From Patescibacteria group bacterium (GTDB taxonomy: Bacteria; Patescibacteriota; Patescibacteriia; UBA2196), in NCBI GenBank assembly GCA_028748975.1, contig JAQTPI010000002.1, positions 51,213 through 115,212 on the forward strand: DNA of 64,000 bases. The letters run 5' to 3'. Made by a program: the position numbers and the translations under genes. Position 1 is the stretch's first letter. Each line of letters starts with the position of its first letter. Of this stretch, positions 2,693 through 45,442 are shown in pieces. The notes below the pieces were generated by a model that searched no databases, was not told the DNA's origin, and was given only the letters and a program-made list of their open reading frames with translations.

Positions 2693-4624
2693 ATGCCTTC
2701 TAATCCCTTTCAAATTGAAGCCAGCCCGAGAAAAATTAAGAATCACCATTTGAGCCGTTTTGGCAGAGGTTCTGGCGGCGAAATTTTTGATTACAGCGGC
2801 GCCAAAGAGGGGCTGAAAGCCTCTATCAGTAATCGGCGAGTGGCTTATTTTTTTCTATTGGCCGCGGTAGTTGGGGCGGTGTTTTTGGGGCGTGTTTTTT
2901 ATTTGCAAATCATCCGGGGCGATTATTGGTTTCAAATTGCCGAGGGCAACCGCATTCGAGTGGAGGAAACTTTGGCGCCGCGCGGCATAATTTTTGACAG
3001 AGAGATGGAACCGTTGGTAAAAAATAAACCGAATTTTGTGTTGTCTTTTATACCGGCTGAATTTATCAATCAAAATTCGGAAGTGGAACCCTTTTTGAAA
3101 TTTTTAACAACAGAGATACCGGAAGTTAATGTTAATGAAGTTAAAGACGAAATTAGCCAAGCCAAACAATATTCGGGCGAAGACGAAGAAATTTTGGATA
3201 ACATTCCTTATGAACGGGCGCTCAGTTTGATGATGAAAATAAAAATTTGGCCGGAGTTGAGATTGTCATATTTTTCCAGCCGAAATTATGTGGCGGCTGA
3301 TTATGGACTTTCCAATGTTTTGGGTTATTTGGGAAAAATTGGACCGGAAGAGTGGCCAGGCTTAAAAAATCAGGGCTATCTTTTGATTGAGCGCGTGGGA
3401 AAAACCGGTTTGGAGCGTATTTATGAAAAAGAATTGCGCGGTAACCCAGGTGAAAAAAAGATAGAAGTGGATGTTAAGGGCAATATTAAAAAAATAATCA
3501 GCGAGAGCGAGCCGAAAAAAGGCGCCAATTTGGTCTTGGCTTTGGATGGAAATTTAAATCAGTTTTTAACAAGGCGTCTGTGCGCGGCGGCCGTGCCTTA
3601 CGGTGGCAAAGCCGCGGCCGTGGCGCTTAATCCCCAAAACGGAGAAATTTTAGCTTTGGTTTCCTGCCCGGTGTTTGACAATAATTTATTCAGTAACACC
3701 AAAATTAACAGTGAAAAAATAGAAGTGCTTTTAAATGACGCCAAACAGCCATTTTTTAATCGACCGATTCAGGGTGAATATCCGGCTGGTTCGGTTTTCA
3801 AACTGGTGATAGCGGCGGCGGGACTGCAGGAAAAAATTATTACTTCTTTGACAACGGTTTTATCGATTGGCGGATTAAAAATTGATCAATGGTTTTTTCC
3901 TGATTGGAAAGCTGGCGGGCATGGAATAACTAATGTTACTAAAGCCATTGCCGAGTCTATTAATACTTTTTTCTATTACGTGGGCGGAGGGTTTGATAAG
4001 TTTAGCGGTTTGGGTGTGGATAAAATTATTGAATATGCCAAAAAATTTCATTTTAATCAAAAATTAGGCATTGATTTGCCTGGTGAAAAGGAAGGATTTT
4101 TACCCAGTCGTGATTGGAAATTTCAGACTAAGGGCGAAGAATGGTATATTGGTGACACTTATCATCTAGCAATCGGACAGGGCGATTTGACCGTGACACC
4201 GCTTCAGGTTGCCGCCATGACTTCTTTTTTTGCCAATGGCGGAAGGCTCTATCAACCACACCTGGTCAAAGAATTTTTATTGGAGCGCGGAGAAAAACAA
4301 GAAGTTAAACCGATGATTTTGGAAAATGATATTATTGATCAAGAAAATATTGAGATTGTGCGGCGGGGCATGCGCCAAGCCGTGACCAGTGGCTCCGCTA
4401 AAATTCTTTTGGATTTACCGGTTAAGGCAGCGGCTAAAACCGGCACGGCCCAAGTTGGTGGTAATAAAAATCCACACGCTTGGTTTACTTCGTTTGCGCC
4501 ATTTGATAATCCAGAAATTGTTTTGACGGTTTTGATTGAGAATGGAGTGGAGGGAAGCGTGACGGCGGCGCCAGTGGTGAAGGATACTTTACAATTTTAT
4601 TTTAATAATAAAATTGTAAAGTAG
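2693..4624 (+). CDS. mrdA: penicillin-binding protein 2 (peptidoglycan D,D-transpeptidase)
   Basis: N-terminal transmembrane helix. SxxK (SVFK) and KTGT motifs. Length and domain order typical of class B PBP. mrdA versus ftsI cannot be strictly resolved from sequence alone. Confidence 0.75.
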   Translation: MPSNPFQIEASPRKIKNHHLSRFGRGSGGEIFDYSGAKEGLKASISNRRVAYFFLLAAVVGAVFLGRVFYLQIIRGDYWFQIAEGNRIRVEETLAPRGIIFDREMEPLVKNKPNFVLSFIPAEFINQNSEVEPFLKFLTTEIPEVNVNEVKDEISQAKQYSGEDEEILDNIPYERALSLMMKIKIWPELRLSYFSSRNYVAADYGLSNVLGYLGKIGPEEWPGLKNQGYLLIERVGKTGLERIYEKELRGNPGEKKIEVDVKGNIKKIISESEPKKGANLVLALDGNLNQFLTRRLCAAAVPYGGKAAAVALNPQNGEILALVSCPVFDNNLFSNTKINSEKIEVLLNDAKQPFFNRPIQGEYPAGSVFKLVIAAAGLQEKIITSLTTVLSIGGLKIDQWFFPDWKAGGHGITNVTKAIAESINTFFYYVGGGFDKFSGLGVDKIIEYAKKFHFNQKLGIDLPGEKEGFLPSRDWKFQTKGEEWYIGDTYHLAIGQGDLTVTPLQVAAMTSFFANGGRLYQPHLVKEFLLERGEKQEVKPMILENDIIDQENIEIVRRGMRQAVTSGSAKILLDLPVKAAAKTGTAQVGGNKNPHAWFTSFAPFDNPEIVLTVLIENGVEGSVTAAPVVKDTLQFYFNNKIVK

Positions 4625-4653: not shown

Positions 4654-4987
4654 GCCACTTTCTTTGGACAAAGATTTTCTTTCGTTCTTTTTTTAGAAAA
4701 AAGAACCAAAAAAGCGCCGCTGGCAAAAAAGCTTCCACAAAATCGGCTGCGTCCTCGCTAAACCCGTTAACTCCTTGTTCCGCCTCTCCGCCGGCTGGCG
4801 GATCGGCGGAACTTCGTCAGACAGAAGCGGGTTTTTCAGCGCTGCGGCACTGAATCGCTCCGACTTAGCTCGATTTTGTCTGGAACCTTTTTTGAGGCGG
4901 CAGTCGCAACGACGGTTTATTTCTCGTGTTTTGTTAATTGTGTTTTGAGTTTTGTTTTAATGTTTTTATGTTTTAATGCTTTCATGG
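4654..4987. repeat. Element A copy 1 (about 330-nt structured intergenic repeat, candidate ncRNA)
   Basis: Collinear with 18890-19187. Begins gccactttctttggacaaagatttt. Helices gttccgcc/ggcggaac and ttcag/ctgaa are conserved with compensatory changes. Ends in gttttaatg(ttt)tatg motif. Confidence 0.6.
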
Positions 4988-5016: not shown

Positions 5017-6264
5017 ATGCTTAAAAATAAAACAAAAGACGCAACCTTAAGATTTCCCAAAGGTTTTCTTTGGGGTACGGCCACCGCCGCTCATCAGGTG
5101 GAGGGAAATAATATCAATTCCGATTGGTGGCAATATGAAGAACAGGGAAAAATACTTTATCGCTCTGGGCGTGCCTGTGACAGTTATAATCGTTTTAAAG
5201 ACGATCATGATTTGATTGAAAAAATGAATAATAATGTTTATCGCTTGTCAATTGAATGGGCGCGGATTGAACCGGAAAAGGGAAAATTTGATCATGAGGC
5301 GATGAAACATTACGTGGAAGTTCTTTCTGATTTGAAGAAACGCGAGATAAAAGTCATGCTGACGTTGCATCATTTTTCCAGTCCCACCTGGATCGCCGCT
5401 TTGGGCGGCTGGGCCAATCATTTTGTGGCTATTTATTATTTTCGGCGTTATGCCAAATTTGTTTTGGAAAATGTCGGCGGTTTGGTTGATTTTTGGGTAA
5501 CCATCAACGAACCGGGGGTTTATACCGACCAGGGTTATGATAAGGGCATCTGGCCACCCATGCAGGTTAATTACTGGAAGGCATTTTTGTGTTATGTTAA
5601 TATGGCGTTCGCTCATCGCTTGGTCTATCGCCTGATTCATAAGAAAATTCGAAACGCGCAAGTGGGTTTGGCCATGAATGTGATGTCTTTTGCTTCTTAC
5701 CGCAAACACAAGCTGATGGAACTTCTTTTTGTCCATTTTGCCGACCGCTTTGTTAACCATTCTTTTTATGATTTAACCAAACACAAGCATGATTTTTTAG
5801 GTATTAACTATTATTTTCGCGTGCGTCTCAAACAAAAAGGCCACAGTTTGGTGCCAGAAGTGGAAGACGTGACCGAAGGCGAACGCGAACTTTCCGATGT
5901 CGGCTGGCTGATTTATCCGCATGGGCTTTATGATGTTTTAATGGATTTGGCCGATTTTAAAGAGCCGATTTATATCACCGAAAACGGTATCGCGGCGGAA
6001 GATGATACTAAGCGTGAAAAATTTATAGTCAATCATCTGGCGGAAATTTATCACGCCATCAAAGGCGGGGTGGATGTGCGCGGTTATTTTCACTGGTCGC
6101 TACTTGATAATTTTGAATGGGAAAAAGGCTTTAGTCCAAAATTCGGTTTAGCCAGCGTTGACCATAAAACTTTTGAGCGCAAACTTAAACCCAGCGGAAT
6201 TTTATATGGCGAAATCGCTAAGAATAATTGCATTGCGGAGGAATTGGTGAAGAAATATCAGTAA
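5017..6264 (+). CDS. glycoside hydrolase family 1 (beta-glucosidase/beta-galactosidase type)
   Basis: Acid/base TINEP and nucleophile YITENG motifs of GH1. N-terminal FLWGTATAAHQVEG signature. Confidence 0.85.
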   Translation: MLKNKTKDATLRFPKGFLWGTATAAHQVEGNNINSDWWQYEEQGKILYRSGRACDSYNRFKDDHDLIEKMNNNVYRLSIEWARIEPEKGKFDHEAMKHYVEVLSDLKKREIKVMLTLHHFSSPTWIAALGGWANHFVAIYYFRRYAKFVLENVGGLVDFWVTINEPGVYTDQGYDKGIWPPMQVNYWKAFLCYVNMAFAHRLVYRLIHKKIRNAQVGLAMNVMSFASYRKHKLMELLFVHFADRFVNHSFYDLTKHKHDFLGINYYFRVRLKQKGHSLVPEVEDVTEGERELSDVGWLIYPHGLYDVLMDLADFKEPIYITENGIAAEDDTKREKFIVNHLAEIYHAIKGGVDVRGYFHWSLLDNFEWEKGFSPKFGLASVDHKTFERKLKPSGILYGEIAKNNCIAEELVKKYQ

Positions 6265-18880: not shown

Positions 18881-18889
18881 TCTTTTTAT

Positions 18890-19187
18890 GCCACTTTCTT
18901 TGGACAAAGATTTTTTGCCACCTTTTTATAAAGGTGGCGCCAAAAGCGCCGCTGTAAAAAAGTTTTGACAAAAGCGGCCTCGTCGTCACTAATTTTGTTA
19001 ACTCCTTGTTCCGCCTCGTTGCGCTCAACTCGGCGGAACTGCGTCAGACAGAAGCAAAATTTTTTTGACTGCGGTCAAAAATCGTTCCGACTCAGCTCGC
19101 TTTTATACCAAAACTTTTTTAAGGCGGCAGTCACGACGATAACGTAATTGTTTTAATGTTTTCATGTTTTAATGTTTTAATGCTTTT
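18890..19187. repeat. Element A copy 2
   Basis: Collinear with 4654-4987. Occupies the whole mreB-mreC spacer. Confidence 0.6.
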
Positions 19188-19973
19188 ATGTCTCACCGTC
19201 GAACTTTTTACATTATTTTGGCAATAGTTATTATCCTGGGCGGGCACTATTTGGGTTTGTGGCGGCCAATTGAGCGGCTGGCGACCAGAGCTTTGAGTTA
19301 TCCTTTAACCGCCGGCTATTCCTGGGGCCGTGATTTTTTTTCTTTTTTTGGCCGTTTCCAAAATAACGCCGATCTAAAAAAAGAAAACCAAGATCTAAAA
19401 GAACGAACAGCGGTTTTGGATGGAGAAATAATTTCTCTGAAGGAAGCCCTGCGCCAGAAAGGCATAACCGATGAGCAATTGGAATTTTTAAAGCAAGAAA
19501 AATTAAAAGCGGTTTTGGCGCGGGTGATTACTCGAGGCGTGGAAAATAATCCTAACCAGCTGATTATCGATAAGGGCGCGCGTGATGGGATTAAAAATGG
19601 TTTGGTAATTTTGGGCCGGGGCGGAGTGGTGGTTGGCAGGGTGACAAGAGTTGAAGACACCAGCGCCCAGATTTTACTTTTAACCGATACAAGCGTGGAG
19701 ATGGGCGCGGCAGATGTTGATGGCGGGCTTTTGGGCGTTGTTAAAGGCAATAAAGATTTAAGCTTGCGCCTTAATTATGTTTTGAAAGAGAAAAAAATAA
19801 CTAAAGGCGATATCATCATAACTTCCGGCGAGAAAGATTTGATACCGGCCGGACTTTTAATCGGAGAAATTGACCAGGTTTTTGAAGATGAGCGGGAAAT
19901 TTTTAAATCCGCTCGTTTGACGCAGCCGGTTGATGTTGCCAATACGGATATTGTGAGTGTAATTTTATTTTGA
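19188..19973 (+). CDS. mreC: rod shape-determining protein MreC
   Basis: N-terminal transmembrane helix, coiled coil, MreC beta-domain pattern. Operon position. Confidence 0.8.
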   Translation: MSHRRTFYIILAIVIILGGHYLGLWRPIERLATRALSYPLTAGYSWGRDFFSFFGRFQNNADLKKENQDLKERTAVLDGEIISLKEALRQKGITDEQLEFLKQEKLKAVLARVITRGVENNPNQLIIDKGARDGIKNGLVILGRGGVVVGRVTRVEDTSAQILLLTDTSVEMGAADVDGGLLGVVKGNKDLSLRLNYVLKEKKITKGDIIITSGEKDLIPAGLLIGEIDQVFEDEREIFKSARLTQPVDVANTDIVSVILF

Positions 19974-20476
19974 TTATGCTGAAAAAAATTATCATAAATT
20001 TAATTCTTTTATTTTTTGTCTTTTGGCTCTCGTTTACTTTTTTTTCTTCCAGAGCCATCTATTTTAATCCGTTTTTGGTAATTTTGGTTTATCTTCTAAT
20101 GTTTTCGGAAAGTGAAATTCAATTATTATGGATTTTGGGGGCGGGGATTTTATTTGACCTGTTTTCAGCCTTGCCTTTTGGTTCGCATCTGATTATTTTT
20201 TGTTTGTTGTTTTTGGGCGGAACATATTTGTTGGAACATTTTTTCACCAAGCGTGCTTTTTCCACCATGGTAATTTTAATTTTAATTGTCAATTCGGTTT
20301 TTTTGATTTTTTTACAATTGGAAAAAATATTACTGGGGTTCTTTAATGTTTCTTCTCCTTTTGTTTGGAATTGGTCTGGGGTTTTGCTGCAAATTTTAAG
20401 CAATCTTATTATAGGAGCAATCATGTTCGCGGTTACTAAATTTTTTACTTCACGGTTGAGAATGAACACTATTTAA
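19970..20476 (+). CDS. mreD: rod shape-determining protein MreD
   Basis: Polytopic small membrane protein overlapping the mreC stop. Confidence 0.65.
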   Translation: MIMLKKIIINLILLFFVFWLSFTFFSSRAIYFNPFLVILVYLLMFSESEIQLLWILGAGILFDLFSALPFGSHLIIFCLLFLGGTYLLEHFFTKRAFSTMVILILIVNSVFLIFLQLEKILLGFFNVSSPFVWNWSGVLLQILSNLIIGAIMFAVTKFFTSRLRMNTI

Positions 20477-23498: not shown

Positions 23499-26225
23499 AT
23501 GTCTTTTTTGACCAAAATTTTCGGCGATGCCAATAAAAGAGTGACGGATAAACTGCGCGGGCGCGTGGAGGGGTTTTTAGTTTGGGAAGAAAAAGTAAAA
23601 AAATTAAAAGAAGAAGATTTTAAGAAAAAAACAGAAGAATTTAAGAAAAAACTGGCGGACAAAGAGTTTGAGGAACAGCAAAAAATTATGGACGAGATTT
23701 TGCCGGAGTGTTTTGCCCTGGTGCGCGAAGCGGCGCGGCGCACTTTGGGACAGCGCCACTATGACGTGCAGTTAGTTGCCGGTATGGTTTTGCATCAGGG
23801 TAATATCGCGGAAATGAAAACCGGTGAAGGCAAAACTTTGTCAGCCACGGCCGCGGTATATCTAAACGCGCTCTCCGGACGCGGGGTGCATGTCATCACT
23901 GTTAATGATTATTTGGCGCGGCGCGACATGGTCTGGATGGGACAGATTTATGATTATCTTGGTTTGACGGTTGGTTGCTTAAATCATGAAAGTGCTTTTT
24001 TATATGATTCGGAATTTAAAGGAAATCAGAAATCAGAAATCAGAAATCAGGGAGAAAAATTAGATATCAAACGCGACTCTGTCGGAGCTTTTAAAGTGGT
24101 GGAGGAATTTTTGCGGCCGGTGGAAAGAAGATTGGCGTACGCGGCGGACATTACCTATGGCACCAACAACGAATATGGTTTTGATTATCTGCGCGACAAC
24201 ATGGTGGCGGATTTGGAACAGAAAGTTCAGCGCGAACTGCATTACTCAATCGTGGATGAAGTTGACTCCATTTTGATTGATGAAGCGCGGACGCCACTGA
24301 TTATTTCGGCGCCAGACAGCGAGGCGACGGACAAATATCGCCAGTTTGCCGAATTGGTTTCGCGCTTGAGTGAAGGCGAGGATTACAATATTGATGAAAA
24401 AATGCGCGCGGCCACCTTGACGGAAGAGGGAATTAAAAAGATGGAAAAAATGCTCGGCGTGGAAAATATTTATACCGACCGCGGGGTGCGCGAAGTCCAT
24501 CACATTGAAAACGCGCTTAAGGCGCGCGTGCTTTTCAAATTAGACCGCGATTATGTGGTCAAAGACGGGGAAGTGATTATCGTGGATGAGTTTACCGGAC
24601 GACTGATGCTTGGCCGGCGTTATTCTGACGGGCTTCATCAGGCGATTGAGGCCAAGGAAGGCGTAAAAATTCAGCAGGAATCGGTGACCATGGCCACCAT
24701 CACTTTTCAAAATTATTTCCGCATGTATAAAAAATTGGCGGGCATGACGGGCACGGCGGCCACGGAAGCGGAAGAATTTGCCAAAATTTATAATCTTGAC
24801 GTGATTCAGATTCCAACCAATAAGCCGATGATTCGGGAAGATCTGGGGGATATAATTTTAAAAACAGAAAAAGAAAAATACGGCGCTATCGTGGAAGAAA
24901 TAAAAACGCGCCACCAATTGGGCCAGCCGGTTTTGGTCGGCACAATTTCCATTGAAAATAATGAACGTCTGGCCGAATTGCTTTCCCGCGAGGGTGTGGA
25001 ACACCGCGTCTTGAATGCCAAACAGCATGAAAAAGAAGCGGAAATTATCGCACAAGCCGGCCGTCTTAAGGCCGTAACCATTGCCACCAACATGGCTGGC
25101 CGCGGCGTGGACATAATTCTTGGTGGCAATCCTTCAACAGAAGAAGAACAGGAGGAAGTGAAGAAATTGGGCGGACTTTGTGTCATTGGCACCGAGCGGC
25201 ACGAAAGCCGGCGCATTGACAATCAACTGCGCGGCCGCACTGGGCGCCAGGGCGACCCGGGTTCTTCCCAATTTTTTGTTTCCATGGAAGATGATTTAAT
25301 GCGTATTTTCGGCGGGGAGAGAATGAAAAATTTGATGAACAGTTTGGGTTTGCCCGAGGGCATGCCGATTAAAAACAGGATGATTTCCAATTCCATTGAA
25401 AAAGCCCAACAAAAAGTAGAGGGGCATAATTTTGATATCAGAAAACACCTGGTGGAGTATGACGATGTGATTAATAAACACCGGGAAGTGATTTATAAGA
25501 AACGGAATCAAATACTAACAACTGACAATAAACAACTAACAACTGACAATAAACAACTAACAACTGACAATAAACAACAAATTTTATCATACGTGAAAGA
25601 AGAAATTGAGACAGTGGTTAAATTTCATACGCAAAGCGAAAATAATTGGAACTTGAAAGAAATCTATGAAGTGATGGATACGGTTTTTCCATTAACAGGC
25701 GAAGAAAAGATAGATTATGAAAGCATTAAAGCATTAAAACATGAAAACAAAACAGAGCAAGAAAAATTAATAGATTATCTTTTTGGCTTGGCGGAAAAAC
25801 AATATAATTTATTGGAAAATAAAATAAACAGCGATGAAAATTTGAAAAAGCAATTTAACGGCGCGGAACCGATGCGTTTGGTGGAACGGTCAATATTACT
25901 CCGCGCGATTGATATGCTGTGGGTGGAACACATTGACCAAATGGATCACATGCGCACGGGCATCGGACTCGTGGGTTATGGGCAAAAAGATCCGCTGGTG
26001 GAATATAAGCGCGAGGCCTACCGGATGTTTAATGATCTTCTAACTAATATCAGAAAACAGGTGGTATACAGTATTTTCAAAATATCTATTACTAACAACC
26101 AACAAACAACTAACAACTTACAACAACCATCAGCAGTTGATAAAAATCAAAAACACAAAGTCGGCAGAAACGATCCATGCCCATGCGGATCTGGCAAGAA
26201 ATACAAAAAGTGCTGTGGAAAATAA
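23499..26225 (+). CDS. secA: preprotein translocase subunit SecA (with lineage-specific low-complexity inserts)
   Basis: DEAD-like motor motifs. C-terminal zinc-binding [13 protein letters not shown]. Inserts at 24021-24053, 25512-25578, 25717-25750 and 26089-26128. Confidence 0.9.
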
Positions 26226-32964: not shown

Positions 32965-33189
32965 AGTTATTTAAAAGCTACGAATGTACTAATAAAACGA
33001 ATGTACGAATCCGTCGTTATCCCCTCCTTTCGAAGGAGGGGTGCGAGCGAGAGCGAGCGGGGTGGTTGTGGTGAAATACTTTTTACAACCCCTCCCTCCG
33101 ACTGCTGTCGGAGACCTCCCCTTCGAAAGGGGAGGATAACCAACGCACAATTAGTATATTCGTACGATTCGTAAATTCGTAGATATTTT

Positions 33190-34856: not shown

Positions 34857-36698
34857 ATGTTAAGTATCAAAATCGCCGGACCCGCGGGGTTCGGAATAAA
34901 AGTCACTGGTTCAATTTTAGCCAAGGTATTTTTACGCCTTGGATATTCTGTTTTTGCCTACACCGAATATCCGTCATTAATTCGTGGCGGGCATAACACT
35001 TTTCAAGTGGACGTTAATGGAGAATGTCATCCCGAGGACTCCGACATCACGTCGGAAGACGAGGGATCTCGTAAGTTTTCTGGTGTCAACTCTCCCAGCT
35101 CCAAAGTGGACATTCTCATCGCTTTGACAGGTGAAGCTATAGAAAAAGAAAAAGATAATTTAAAGAAAGACAGCCTGGTCATTTGTGATGATACATTAAA
35201 ACATGAAAGCATTAAAACATTAAAACAAAAGGGAACAAATATTATTGATATTCCCTTAATTGAATTCGCCAAAAAAAATGGCGGAGAATTAATGAAAAAT
35301 ACAGTCGCGCTTGGAGCTTTGTTTGCCATCATCGATAATGTCATTCCGAGGAGCGGGGCGACGAGGAATCTCGTCGAAACATTAAATAAAGTACTCGAAG
35401 ATACTTTTGGTCATAAGGGCGTCGTGGCAGAACAAAACGTAAAAGCAGCGGCAGAGGGCTACGAGTGGCTAAAAAACAATAAAGACAAAATAAAATCTAC
35501 GAGATCCCTCGTCATTCCGACTGCGGCCGGAACTCCTCGGGATGACATTTTACTGCTCATCTCTGGCAACCAGGCCTGCGCTCTCGGCGCCGTGGCCGCC
35601 GGCTGCCAACTCTATTCTGCCTACCCCATGACTCCGGCCACGGAAATTTTGCATTATTTGGAAGCCAAACAAAAAGAAACAAAAATGATTGTGCACCAGC
35701 CCGAAGATGAAATTGCCGCCATTCACGCCGCGCTGGGCGCTTCTTTTGCCGGCGCGAGATCCGCAGTAGGCACTTCTGGCGGCGGTTTTGCCTTAATGAC
35801 CGAGGGACTGTCCTTGGCAGGGCAATTAGAGCTTCCTTTGGTCATTTTTGAGGTTATGCGCCCGGCTCCGGCCACGGGACTACCCACCTGGACCGAACAA
35901 GGCGATTTATCTTTTGTCCTTAATGCCGGCCATGGTGATTTTGCCAGAGCAATTCTGGCTCCCGGCAATCCGGCTGAATGTTTTGAATTAACTCAAAAAG
36001 CCTTCAACCTCGCTGACCAGTTTCAAATTCCGGTTTTTGTCATGACTGATAAATTGCTTGGTGAATCATATTACACCACTGATGAAAAAATATTTAATAA
36101 TATTGAAAAAGTGAATCGGGGAAAAATTATTGGTAATCAGAAATTAGAAATCGGAAATCAGGGACTAAACGAATTATTTGCTCGCTACAAACTGGAAAAA
36201 GATGGCGTGTCACCGCGCACCATACCAGGTACTGAAGGCGGCGAATATGTTGCCAATTCTGATGAACACGATGAGTTTGGAATCTCCAGCGAAAGCGCGG
36301 AAATAAGAAAAGAACAAATGGACAAACGCCTGAAAAAACTGGCGGAATTGCAAAAAGAAATTCCTCTGCCGACTTTGTATGGCCCGAAAGACGCGAAGAC
36401 GACTTTGGTTTGCTGGGGTTCAATGCTGGGAGCTTGTTTGGATACATTAAAACATGAAAGCATTAAAGCATTAAAGCAAAATAACATAAACATCCTGCAT
36501 TTTTCCTATATTTATCCGCTGCCAATGGGATTAACGGAATTTTTAAAGAAATTTAATAATTTAGTGCTGGTGGAAAACAACGCCAGCGGCCACTTTGGCA
36601 AACTCTTGCGCCAAGAAACCGGCATAGAGATTAAAGATAAATTATTAAAGTATGATGGGAGACCTTTCTGGTCAGACGAGATAGCCAAACTTTTATAA
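34857..36698 (+). CDS. 2-oxoacid:ferredoxin oxidoreductase, fused gamma-alpha subunit (carries six in-frame repeat insertions)
   Basis: Gamma domain N-terminus (AGPAGFGIKVTGSIL) followed by alpha domain (GNQACALGAVAAGC...YPMTPATEIL). Inserts at 35035-35081, 35193-35229, 35339-35374, 35500-35547, 36131-36162 and 36443-36476. Confidence 0.8.
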   Translation: MLSIKIAGPAGFGIKVTGSILAKVFLRLGYSVFAYTEYPSLIRGGHNTFQVDVNGECHPEDSDITSEDEGSRKFSGVNSPSSKVDILIALTGEAIEKEKDNLKKDSLVICDDTLKHESIKTLKQKGTNIIDIPLIEFAKKNGGELMKNTVALGALFAIIDNVIPRSGATRNLVETLNKVLEDTFGHKGVVAEQNVKAAAEGYEWLKNNKDKIKSTRSLVIPTAAGTPRDDILLLISGNQACALGAVAAGCQLYSAYPMTPATEILHYLEAKQKETKMIVHQPEDEIAAIHAALGASFAGARSAVGTSGGGFALMTEGLSLAGQLELPLVIFEVMRPAPATGLPTWTEQGDLSFVLNAGHGDFARAILAPGNPAECFELTQKAFNLADQFQIPVFVMTDKLLGESYYTTDEKIFNNIEKVNRGKIIGNQKLEIGNQGLNELFARYKLEKDGVSPRTIPGTEGGEYVANSDEHDEFGISSESAEIRKEQMDKRLKKLAELQKEIPLPTLYGPKDAKTTLVCWGSMLGACLDTLKHESIKALKQNNINILHFSYIYPLPMGLTEFLKKFNNLVLVENNASGHFGKLLRQETGIEIKDKLLKYDGRPFWSDEIAKLL

Positions 36699-42961: not shown

Positions 42962-43130
42962 GTTACCCCCCTCTTTTTGTCGTTTGCCCGTTCTTGGGCG
43001 GTTGTAAAAATGAACTATTTTATATAAAATAACCCTATCATATCTAAAATTTTTTGTCAAACCATTCGCTATCCAGTCTGTCATTTTTCACTTTTCATTA
43101 TTCATTTTTCATTATTTATAATACAAACCT

Positions 43131-45196: not shown

Positions 45197-45268
45197 CCCC
45201 GAGCTTGTTTGGGGTGGTTTACCCCGAGCTTGTTCGAGGTGGTTTACCCCGAGCTTGTCGAGGGGTTT
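45197..45268. repeat. 3 x 25-nt tandem repeat (ccccgagcttgt..ggtggttta)
   Basis: Direct tandem copies immediately upstream of the minus-strand ORF start. Confidence 0.65.
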
Positions 45269-45442
45269 AATTGTGAGCGAACTGGGTATTGTTTTATCTT
45301 ATACCCAATCCCGAGGGTTTGTCAAATGGTTTTTCTTTTTGGCTTTCATGGACTTATTCGCGCGAATGGGTAAATGGATTTTTTTCTAAAATAAAAAAAT
45401 CCCCGCGAATTTTTGTTCGCGGGGTGTTTGTTTCAGATGTGT

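Follow-up and report, generated by a model that had tools for sequence, protein, structure and literature searches.

A structured ~250-nt repeat in the mreB–mreC spacer of a Patescibacteria genome, probably a secondary insertion from an interspersed family

What fills the long spacer between mreB and mreC in a Patescibacteria genome? Genomes of Patescibacteria (CPR) are small and streamlined, and a large insert within an essential cell-shape operon therefore matters, both for annotation and for judging how much insertion such genomes tolerate. We investigated this spacer in a 64-kb stretch of DNA (hereafter the window), in which mreB and mreC are separated by 307 nt (18881-19187). The MreC protein of the window is a 100% match to a Patescibacteria MAG protein.

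The mreB–mreC spacer, its element and the related copies

The spacer contains two features, a 249-nt element (18890-19138) and a separate (TGTTTTAA)n tandem repeat (19149-19187). The locus is made up as follows.

17840-18880 (+): mreB, 346 aa, stop codon TAA at 18878-18880 (ORF; Pfam MreB_Mbl, E 1.8e-136)
18881-18889 (+): 9-nt T-rich remnant of the original spacer, TCTTTTTAT (from the sequence, and from the empty L001 site, TAA TTTT ATG)
18890-18916 (+): Block A, an optional 5' module, GCCRCTTTYTTTGGACAAAG plus a T-run
18917-18938 (+): P1 hairpin, GCCACC...GGTGGC, five of its ten pairs with compensatory changes
18948-19128 (+): rod, helices P2-P4 around a three-way junction (RNAalifold and pair counts)
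19000-19008 and 19039-19055 (+): near-invariant junction strands, AACTCCTTG and CTGCGTCAGACAGAAGC respectively
19009-19038 (+): P6, in the P5/P6 branch of the rod
19060-19081 (+): P7, the other rod branch, with tetraloop UGCG at 19070-19073 and closing pair C19069-G19074
19129-19138 (+): 3' linker ending ACGACG, the 3' end of the inserted unit
19139-19187 (+): junction ATAACGTAATTG and the (TGTTTTAA)n tandem repeat abutting the mreC ATG, outside the core
19188-19973 (+): mreC, 261 aa (ORF; Pfam MreC PF04085)
19970-20476 (+): mreD-like ORF, directly after mreC

The repeated sequence begins at G18890, 10 nt past the mreB stop codon, and similarity to a second copy in the window extends to 19186, adjoining the mreC ATG (blastn, 18890-19186 versus 4654-4982, 72% identity, E 5e-40). 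The spacer also folds well beyond shuffled sequences (z = -5.8 for the + and -7.2 for the - strand). An earlier note on this DNA had reported, with correct coordinates, an element filling the mreB–mreC spacer, which these comparisons bear out, and had treated 18890-19187 as one element. The latter holds for 18890-19138, but 19149-19187 is a separate tandem repeat, seen without the element in relatives.

We located the 3' boundary of the unit by a three-way comparison at the pbp2–GH1 spacer, between window copy 1, L036 (filled) and L034 (empty). The unit runs from Block A (GCCRC...) to ...GGCGGCAG-N4-6-ACGACG, corresponding to 18890-19138 in the mreB–mreC spacer (copy 2) and to 4654-4915 in copy 1. 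The ACGACG end motif is kept in five of seven copies. Block A is also present in five of the seven (both window copies, L019, L020 and L036) and missing from L018 and L022, and was never encountered alone, without the element.

For the tail repeat, TRF reports 19149-19191 with a period of 8 and 5.4 copies, and the motif (TGTTTTAA) has 15 matches in the window versus 0.67 expected. We saw repeats of this type in two relatives, L003 and L034, whose corresponding spacers have no element. Where the tail of copy 1 sits, the element-free pbp2–GH1 spacer of L034 reads CTTGTGTTTTGTTAATTGGGTTTTG... (36/39 identity, L034 2043-2081), followed after the tail repeat by a TATAAT/AAAGTAAATA region, as in the window; the element-free 82-nt mreB–mreC spacer of L003 contains 29 nt identical to the tail of copy 1, together with an inverted copy. 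Because the spacers of element-free relatives carry this type of repeat, the tail is of a resident upstream type and was not co-inserted with the core. The L003 spacer (857-948) is composed of inverted and direct copies of the tail-type repeat (AACACAAAACTCAATTAGCAAAAC ... GTGTTTTGTTAATTGTGTTTTG). Within 19149-19190, every ATGTTTTA unit can be read as a mini-ORF, ATG-TTT-TAA, whose stop codon overlaps the next ATG (TAATG), and this stop-start ladder reaches the mreC start codon.

We identified seven copies of the element at six different junctions, a total pooled over the window and two metagenomes and not a count per genome. The second window copy and the remaining sites are listed below.

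4654-4915 (+): copy 1 of the element; Block A 4654-4679, P1 4680-4710, rod 4716-4901, linker 4902-4915; pbp2 (2693-4624) upstream, GH1 glycosidase gene (5017-6264) downstream
4923-4987 (+): tail-type repeat downstream of copy 1, homologous to resident L034 sequence
L036: pbp2/GH1 junction, as for window copy 1
L018: HlyD/MacA-like / MacB-like ATPase junction
L019: membrane ORF / CofE-like junction
L020: membrane ORF / unknown gene junction
L022: ybaB/recR junction, element antisense to both genes

In the 64-kb window, a covariance model of the element recovers only the two known copies (250 and 227 bits), the next + strand match scoring ~14 bits. A scan of metagenomes for two conserved junction strings matched 11 loci, comprising four true homologs (L018, L019, L020 and L022, all from JGI metagenome 3300029288) and seven chance matches. 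The seventh copy, L036 (metagenome 3300037067, 193 bits), shares with window copy 1 not only the pbp2–GH1 junction but an identical left boundary: TTTTTATAAT, then 7 nt, then GCCRC. Core pairwise identity among the copies is 63-87%.

Six of the seven copies lie between co-directional genes. For the seventh, L019, the upstream ORF is co-directional, as is the downstream reading frame, which runs off the contig. Six of the seven copies, all but L022, point in the same direction as their flanking genes and start no more than ~30 nt from the upstream stop codon. The genes flanking the metagenome copies L018, L019, L020 and L022 have no counterparts in the window. In four of the seven copies (both window copies, L018, and L019 in shortened form), the 3' end abuts a (TGTTTTRW)n-type repeat, which suggests an insertion preference beside such repeats. 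P1 occurs in two sequence versions, whose distribution is independent of the rest of the element; L018 and L019 are 95% identical outside P1 yet carry different versions of it, suggesting exchange between copies. We additionally identified a solo 3'-arm and linker fragment (GCACGACGACGG...AACTTTTTTAAGGCGGCAGCTACAGACG) at 1914-1954 of L036, ~60 nt beyond the full copy in that spacer and possibly the product of a further, truncated insertion or of a rearrangement.

Two independent Logan contigs, assembled from short reads of this organism or a very close one, stop at the element, L028 starting at window position 19103, inside it, and L033 ending 8 nt after the pbp2 stop codon, beside it. Such breaks are as expected for a multi-copy repeat, and the element thus breaks short-read assemblies.

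We could not find the element in a phage collection (blastn) or, in three scans, in viral contigs. The pattern CTCCTTGTTCCGCCN{8,38}GGCGGAAC gave nine matches in GTDB genomes, all unrelated (Rhodobacteraceae, Dehalococcoidia and others) and none similar by blastn or by the covariance model. The model likewise detected no copies near secA in three relatives whose SecA is 71-79% identical (~54 kb in all), and a full-text search of the literature on CPR/Patescibacteria retrieved no description of such an element. The 249-nt repeat is a previously undescribed, small, lineage-restricted family.

Orthologous sites without the element are known at two loci. The mreB–mreC spacer measures 4 nt in L001 and L002 (TAA TTTT ATG) and 8 nt in L007, without the element, and 82 nt in L003, without the core; MreC of these relatives is 69-77% identical to that of the window, and the MreC-proximal MreB sequence ~90% identical. 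The covariance model detected no copies on the mreC contigs of relatives. The pbp2–GH1 spacer, filled in L036, is 104 nt long without the core in L034 (PBP2 74% identical).

These sites bear directly on the possibility, raised by the earlier note, that the element is a cis-regulatory leader of mreC. A dedicated leader, riboswitch or attenuator for mreC/mreD would account for a highly structured sequence that fills the whole spacer directly upstream of mreC, but four relatives (L001, L002, L003 and L007) have the same spacer without it, the element is present at other, unrelated junctions, and it has neither a terminator/antiterminator pair nor an Rfam match. Short mreB–mreC spacers without the element are the pattern that, by the earlier note's own reckoning, speaks against a leader. 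Empty spacers in relatives and copies at unrelated junctions thus refute a dedicated mreC leader, a reading that we now consider scarcely credible, and support an inserted interspersed element. Another reading in the earlier note, which also named a possible processing site, is an inserted mobile element, and this one gains support from presence and absence at two loci and from the dispersed copies. The spacer is probably the product of a secondary insertion of one member of a ~250-nt non-coding interspersed repeat family, non-autonomous and passively co-transcribed.

Fold, strand and signals of the element

RNAalifold predicts a consensus fold common to the seven copies, with the 5' hairpin P1 and a ~190-nt three-branched rod, in which P2-P4 form a long closing helix with bulges that leads to a three-way junction and two branches. 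The P5/P6 branch has near-invariant internal-loop strands (AACUCCUUG and CUGCGUCAGACAGAAGC), and in P7 the stem varies and covaries while the loop is invariably C(UGCG)G.

The seven sequences give 74 pairs with 96.1% of cells paired, and 32 of the 74 are changed on both sides yet kept, versus 14.8±2.4 in shuffles (0/500 reach 32) and 4-12 in slid-structure controls. A six-sequence MAFFT alignment, not fitted to the model, gives 29 double-changed pairs versus 13.4±2.3. L036, which was left out of model building, has new compensations in P6, a stem otherwise invariant, where two pairs change from C-G to U-A. Between window copy 1 and L036, which occupy the same locus and are 65% identical outside P1, 43 pairs are unchanged, 17 are double-changed and kept, 2 are single-changed and kept, and 12 are broken in one copy. 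Compensations at the same locus imply that the fold of a single strand has been maintained by selection, or by conversion from intact copies.

An Rfam 15 search of the whole window at gathering thresholds, covering among others riboswitches, ribozymes, 6S, RNase P, tmRNA, HEARO and IS605-orfB motifs, returned tRNA-Pro only, and permissive scans of six copies, two from the window and four from metagenomes, gave sub-threshold noise only. Weak minus-strand matches of the GA-cis RNA (RF02987) over P6-P7 in two copies (18.1 bits, E 0.31; 20.2 bits, E 2; gathering score 34.7 bits) span ~90 of ~250 nt, are not found in the other copies, and were taken as chance. With covariation unusually clean for so few sequences and no Rfam match, the element is a candidate new RNA family. 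A coding function was considered and rejected: the small reading frames of the two strands have residues in common solely at stretches of conserved DNA, and indels of the element are not multiples of three, including 1-nt indels, so that every frame is broken.

No sigma-70-like promoter was found in either window copy. Block A contains a -35-like hexamer (TGGACA), which was rejected as the element's own promoter, having no acceptable -10 after 17 nt and being missing with Block A from two of the seven copies; the tail units (TGTTTTAAT) were rejected as -10 boxes, as they are without A at hexamer position 2. A search for intrinsic terminators or attenuators gave a single weak site, at 18974-18986 of copy 2; copy 1 had none, and the count is no higher than in shuffles. 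The earlier note's view that the element is part of the mreBCD transcript would be a reasonable one from the sequence, neither window copy having a promoter-like or conserved terminator-like site. The same observations weigh against a further reading, in which the copies are free-standing genes for trans-acting small RNAs that chance to sit between other genes. The conservation pattern is typical of non-coding RNA, and the antisense copy in L022 could have its own transcription; however, besides having no such signals, the copies fill junctions of tightly packed co-directional genes, and we consider this origin very unlikely.

The strand on which the fold operates is less directly read. Counted on the + strand, the 68 pairs common to the best structures of both strands include 4 cells with G·U and 7 with A·C. 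Both strands gain a few invariant G·U pairs at helix ends, and by alifold score the minus strand folds no worse than the + strand (-89 versus -78). A strand call by G·U versus A·C counts was indecisive, since each strand can shift register at helix ends. The loop C(UGCG)G fits the UNCG pattern on the + strand only, and cUNCGg loops are especially stable in RNA. The pair U47·G225 of six copies is C-G in L036, which also has G·U at pair 54-219. Because of the UNCG-pattern loop, the change of U47·G225 to C-G and the co-directionality of six of the seven copies with their flanking genes, + strand RNA is favoured, and the element likely folds in this form.

These features bring in a different reading of the family, as a host-beneficial RNA module (a processing or stability determinant, an insulator uncoupling cistrons, or a protein-binding domain) whose spread is secondary. 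Consistent with this are the 17 double compensations between diverged copies of one locus, the near-invariance of the junction strands and the C(UGCG)G loop while stems vary, the position of six co-directional copies close behind an upstream stop codon, and the lack of a terminator, so that the element would be read through. A fold long kept at one locus, with near-invariant junction strands, is also more like a functional RNA than decaying selfish DNA, and to this extent counts against a mobile repeat. However, the flanking genes have no common function, the L022 copy is antisense to its operon, close relatives are without the element at both window sites, and ongoing gene conversion from active copies could equally keep the fold. 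We rate a host-beneficial module as unlikely. To a bolder proposal we give a similarly low probability: that the element belongs to a new class of functional mobile structured Patescibacteria RNA. In this view the ~250-nt domain, built on a conserved three-way junction and with one arm capped by UNCG, would move from one operon junction to another and be kept for an RNA-level activity; it would not be inert MITE-like DNA. Candidate activities may include protein binding, programmed mRNA processing or insulation, catalysis, and mobility via an RNA intermediate. A functional-RNA reading is kept alive because conservation like that of non-coding RNA persists at an old shared insertion.

Likeness to known repeats and a proposed course of events

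The published definition of bacterial MITEs (PMC3049150; PMC3184786) asks for terminal inverted repeats and target-site duplications, and further for multiple copies, a small size and extensive base pairing. The element resembles them in being small, non-coding, multi-copy, dispersed, and present or absent among relatives, but terminal inverted repeats are absent: its inverted arms of 35-45 nt (P2-P4) are internal and sub-terminal, and outside them lie conserved non-complementary modules, Block A and P1 on the left and the ...ACGACG linker on the right. The arms covary with no single sequence kept, whereas MITEs keep a transposase-binding sequence. We found no convincing target-site duplication. 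Comparison of copy 1 with the empty L034 site (...ATCACAAAC|ATTCTTTTC...) gives none, and the TTTT(T)AT(T)ATG-like strings on both sides of copy 2 and of L020 are low-complexity and, in copy 2, correspond to the last 8-nt repeat unit. There is no common short target motif 5' of the element, the left flanks being TCTTTTTAT, TTGCAGAC, GGCCTGT and CACCAAT. A Pfam scan of 20 neighbouring ORFs identified no transposase, reverse transcriptase or integrase, and no cognate insertion sequence or autonomous partner among them. Together with the absence of copies in the ~54 kb of three relatives, and with only seven copies known in all, the lack of terminal inverted repeats, of a convincing target duplication and of a neighbouring mobility enzyme or partner counts against a mobile repeat.

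Some of these observations would suit an element that moves as single-stranded DNA, either a non-autonomous IS200/IS605-type (HUH) derivative or an attC-like structure-specific recombination site, with the hairpins read in the single strand. Such an origin would be compatible with selection on structure rather than sequence and with both strands folding about equally well, and the orientation bias could then track replication and not transcription. IS200/IS605-derived (PATE-like) elements would be compatible with the absence of terminal inverted repeats and of a clear target duplication. However, they insert 3' of a short target motif and have small sub-terminal hairpins, whereas the element has no conserved motif in its 5' flank and forms one branched rod of 190 nt. 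The invariant U·G pairs and the UNCG-type loop are more fitting for RNA, the scanned neighbouring ORFs encode no Y1 transposase or integrase, and the flanks are not cassettes but core genes whose order is conserved. We consider a single-stranded DNA element improbable, somewhat more so than an RNA module.

Among described repeats, bcr1 of the Bacillus cereus group is ~155 bp long, transcribed with its neighbours, and non-conserved in distribution, with compensatory changes (PMC3184786). The element is like it as a small non-coding interspersed repeat, patchy between relatives, whose RNA-level fold is kept by compensatory changes; the likeness is one of description, to a repeat from a different host phylum, and bcr1 has flanking 5-bp direct repeats, whereas no target duplication could be made out for the ~250-nt element. 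The BOX repeats of Streptococcus pneumoniae lie between genes, are co-transcribed, and are predicted to alter expression via extensive secondary structure (PMC3049150). They consist of modules of ~45-60 nt, boxA, boxB(n) and boxC, with mutually pairing terminal modules and optional ones; the element, again by description, is comparably modular, with Block A, P1, the rod and the adjoining tandem repeat. BOX elements are enriched downstream of convergent genes and depleted between co-transcribed ones, whereas six of the seven copies studied here lie between co-directional genes. ERIC elements, like BOX, are co-transcribed and affect mRNA (PMC3184786; PMC3049150), and ERIC/Correia repeats create RNase E/RNase III sites or change mRNA stability in an orientation-dependent manner (PMC3049150; PMC3184786). 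They share with the element a short, non-coding, multi-copy and highly base-paired form and insertion in transcribed intergenic regions, but are defined by terminal inverted repeats and a TA target duplication, and our comparisons gave no convincing instance of either in the element. The element is a new family of a known general kind, nearest in behaviour to bcr1, BOX and ERIC/Correia.

Under the preferred reading, secondary insertion of an interspersed repeat, the non-autonomous element would be spread in trans by some enzyme or by recombination, and would tend to land just upstream of resident (TGTTTTRW)n-type repeats. The insert stretches a junction of 4-8 nt in relatives to 307 nt without adding a terminator. 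RNA polymerase would read from mreB through the element, which would be carried passively in the mreBCD mRNA and fold in the transcript into the hairpin and rod, most likely as + strand RNA. The 4-8 nt junction is probably translationally coupled, and coupling of mreB and mreC would be lost through the insert; mreC may then initiate independently from the U-rich tandem repeat, which is largely unpaired in the consensus fold. Tail-type repeats lie directly before the start codons of other genes in L018, L019 and L034 (3408-3436). The long helices might provide an RNase cleavage site or affect mRNA stability.

We know of almost no regulatory RNA in the Patescibacteria phylum. If its fold is functional, the element would represent a portable RNA module in this group. 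Relatives that differ at the mreB/mreC and pbp2/GH1 junctions additionally provide a natural experiment on how a large structured insert affects operon expression.

Other repeats and features of the window

We additionally identified the reverse complement of the (TGTTTTAA)n tail in frame within + strand ORFs, as minus-strand matches at 25717-25749, 35193-35227 and 36445-36478. One lies inside SecA, in a linker that is hypervariable among homologs, and a 2-oxoacid:ferredoxin oxidoreductase-like ORF contains it twice, encoding the amino acids DTLKHESIKTLKQ and DTLKHESIKALKQ.

The 64-kb window contains 43 tandem arrays with a period of 6-12, for example at 14091-14120, 17800-17836, 33149-33181 and 43081-43113. 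Many occupy spacers and stop 4-40 nt short of a start codon, with units that differ by locus; a (ATGCTAAA)x4.6 array ends 4 nt before the mreB ATG. No evident Shine-Dalgarno-like sequence was found at the array-preceded starts.

Within secA, a perfect 21-nt x3.1 repeat (25514-25578) gives three copies of LTTDNKQ at a position where the linker of homologs is short and variable, and a perfect 7-nt x4.1 array (GAAATCA, 24022-24050) is placed such that a change in copy number would shift the frame of this essential ORF. An ORF cut by the window start (1-1950) encodes a VirD4/TraG-like type IV coupling protein (TrwB_AAD_bind, 5e-12), and carries three heptamer tandem arrays near its 3' end (1609-1748). 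The tRNA-Pro(CGG) gene at 11112-11186 is followed by a near-duplicate of its 3' half at ~11199-11240, which, judged from the sequence, would match the trace of a mobile element that integrated into the tRNA gene. Finally, an intergenic region at 45197-45269 contains a 25-nt unit (CCCCGAGCTTGTTCGAGGTGGTTTA) repeated three times head to tail, with 92% matches.
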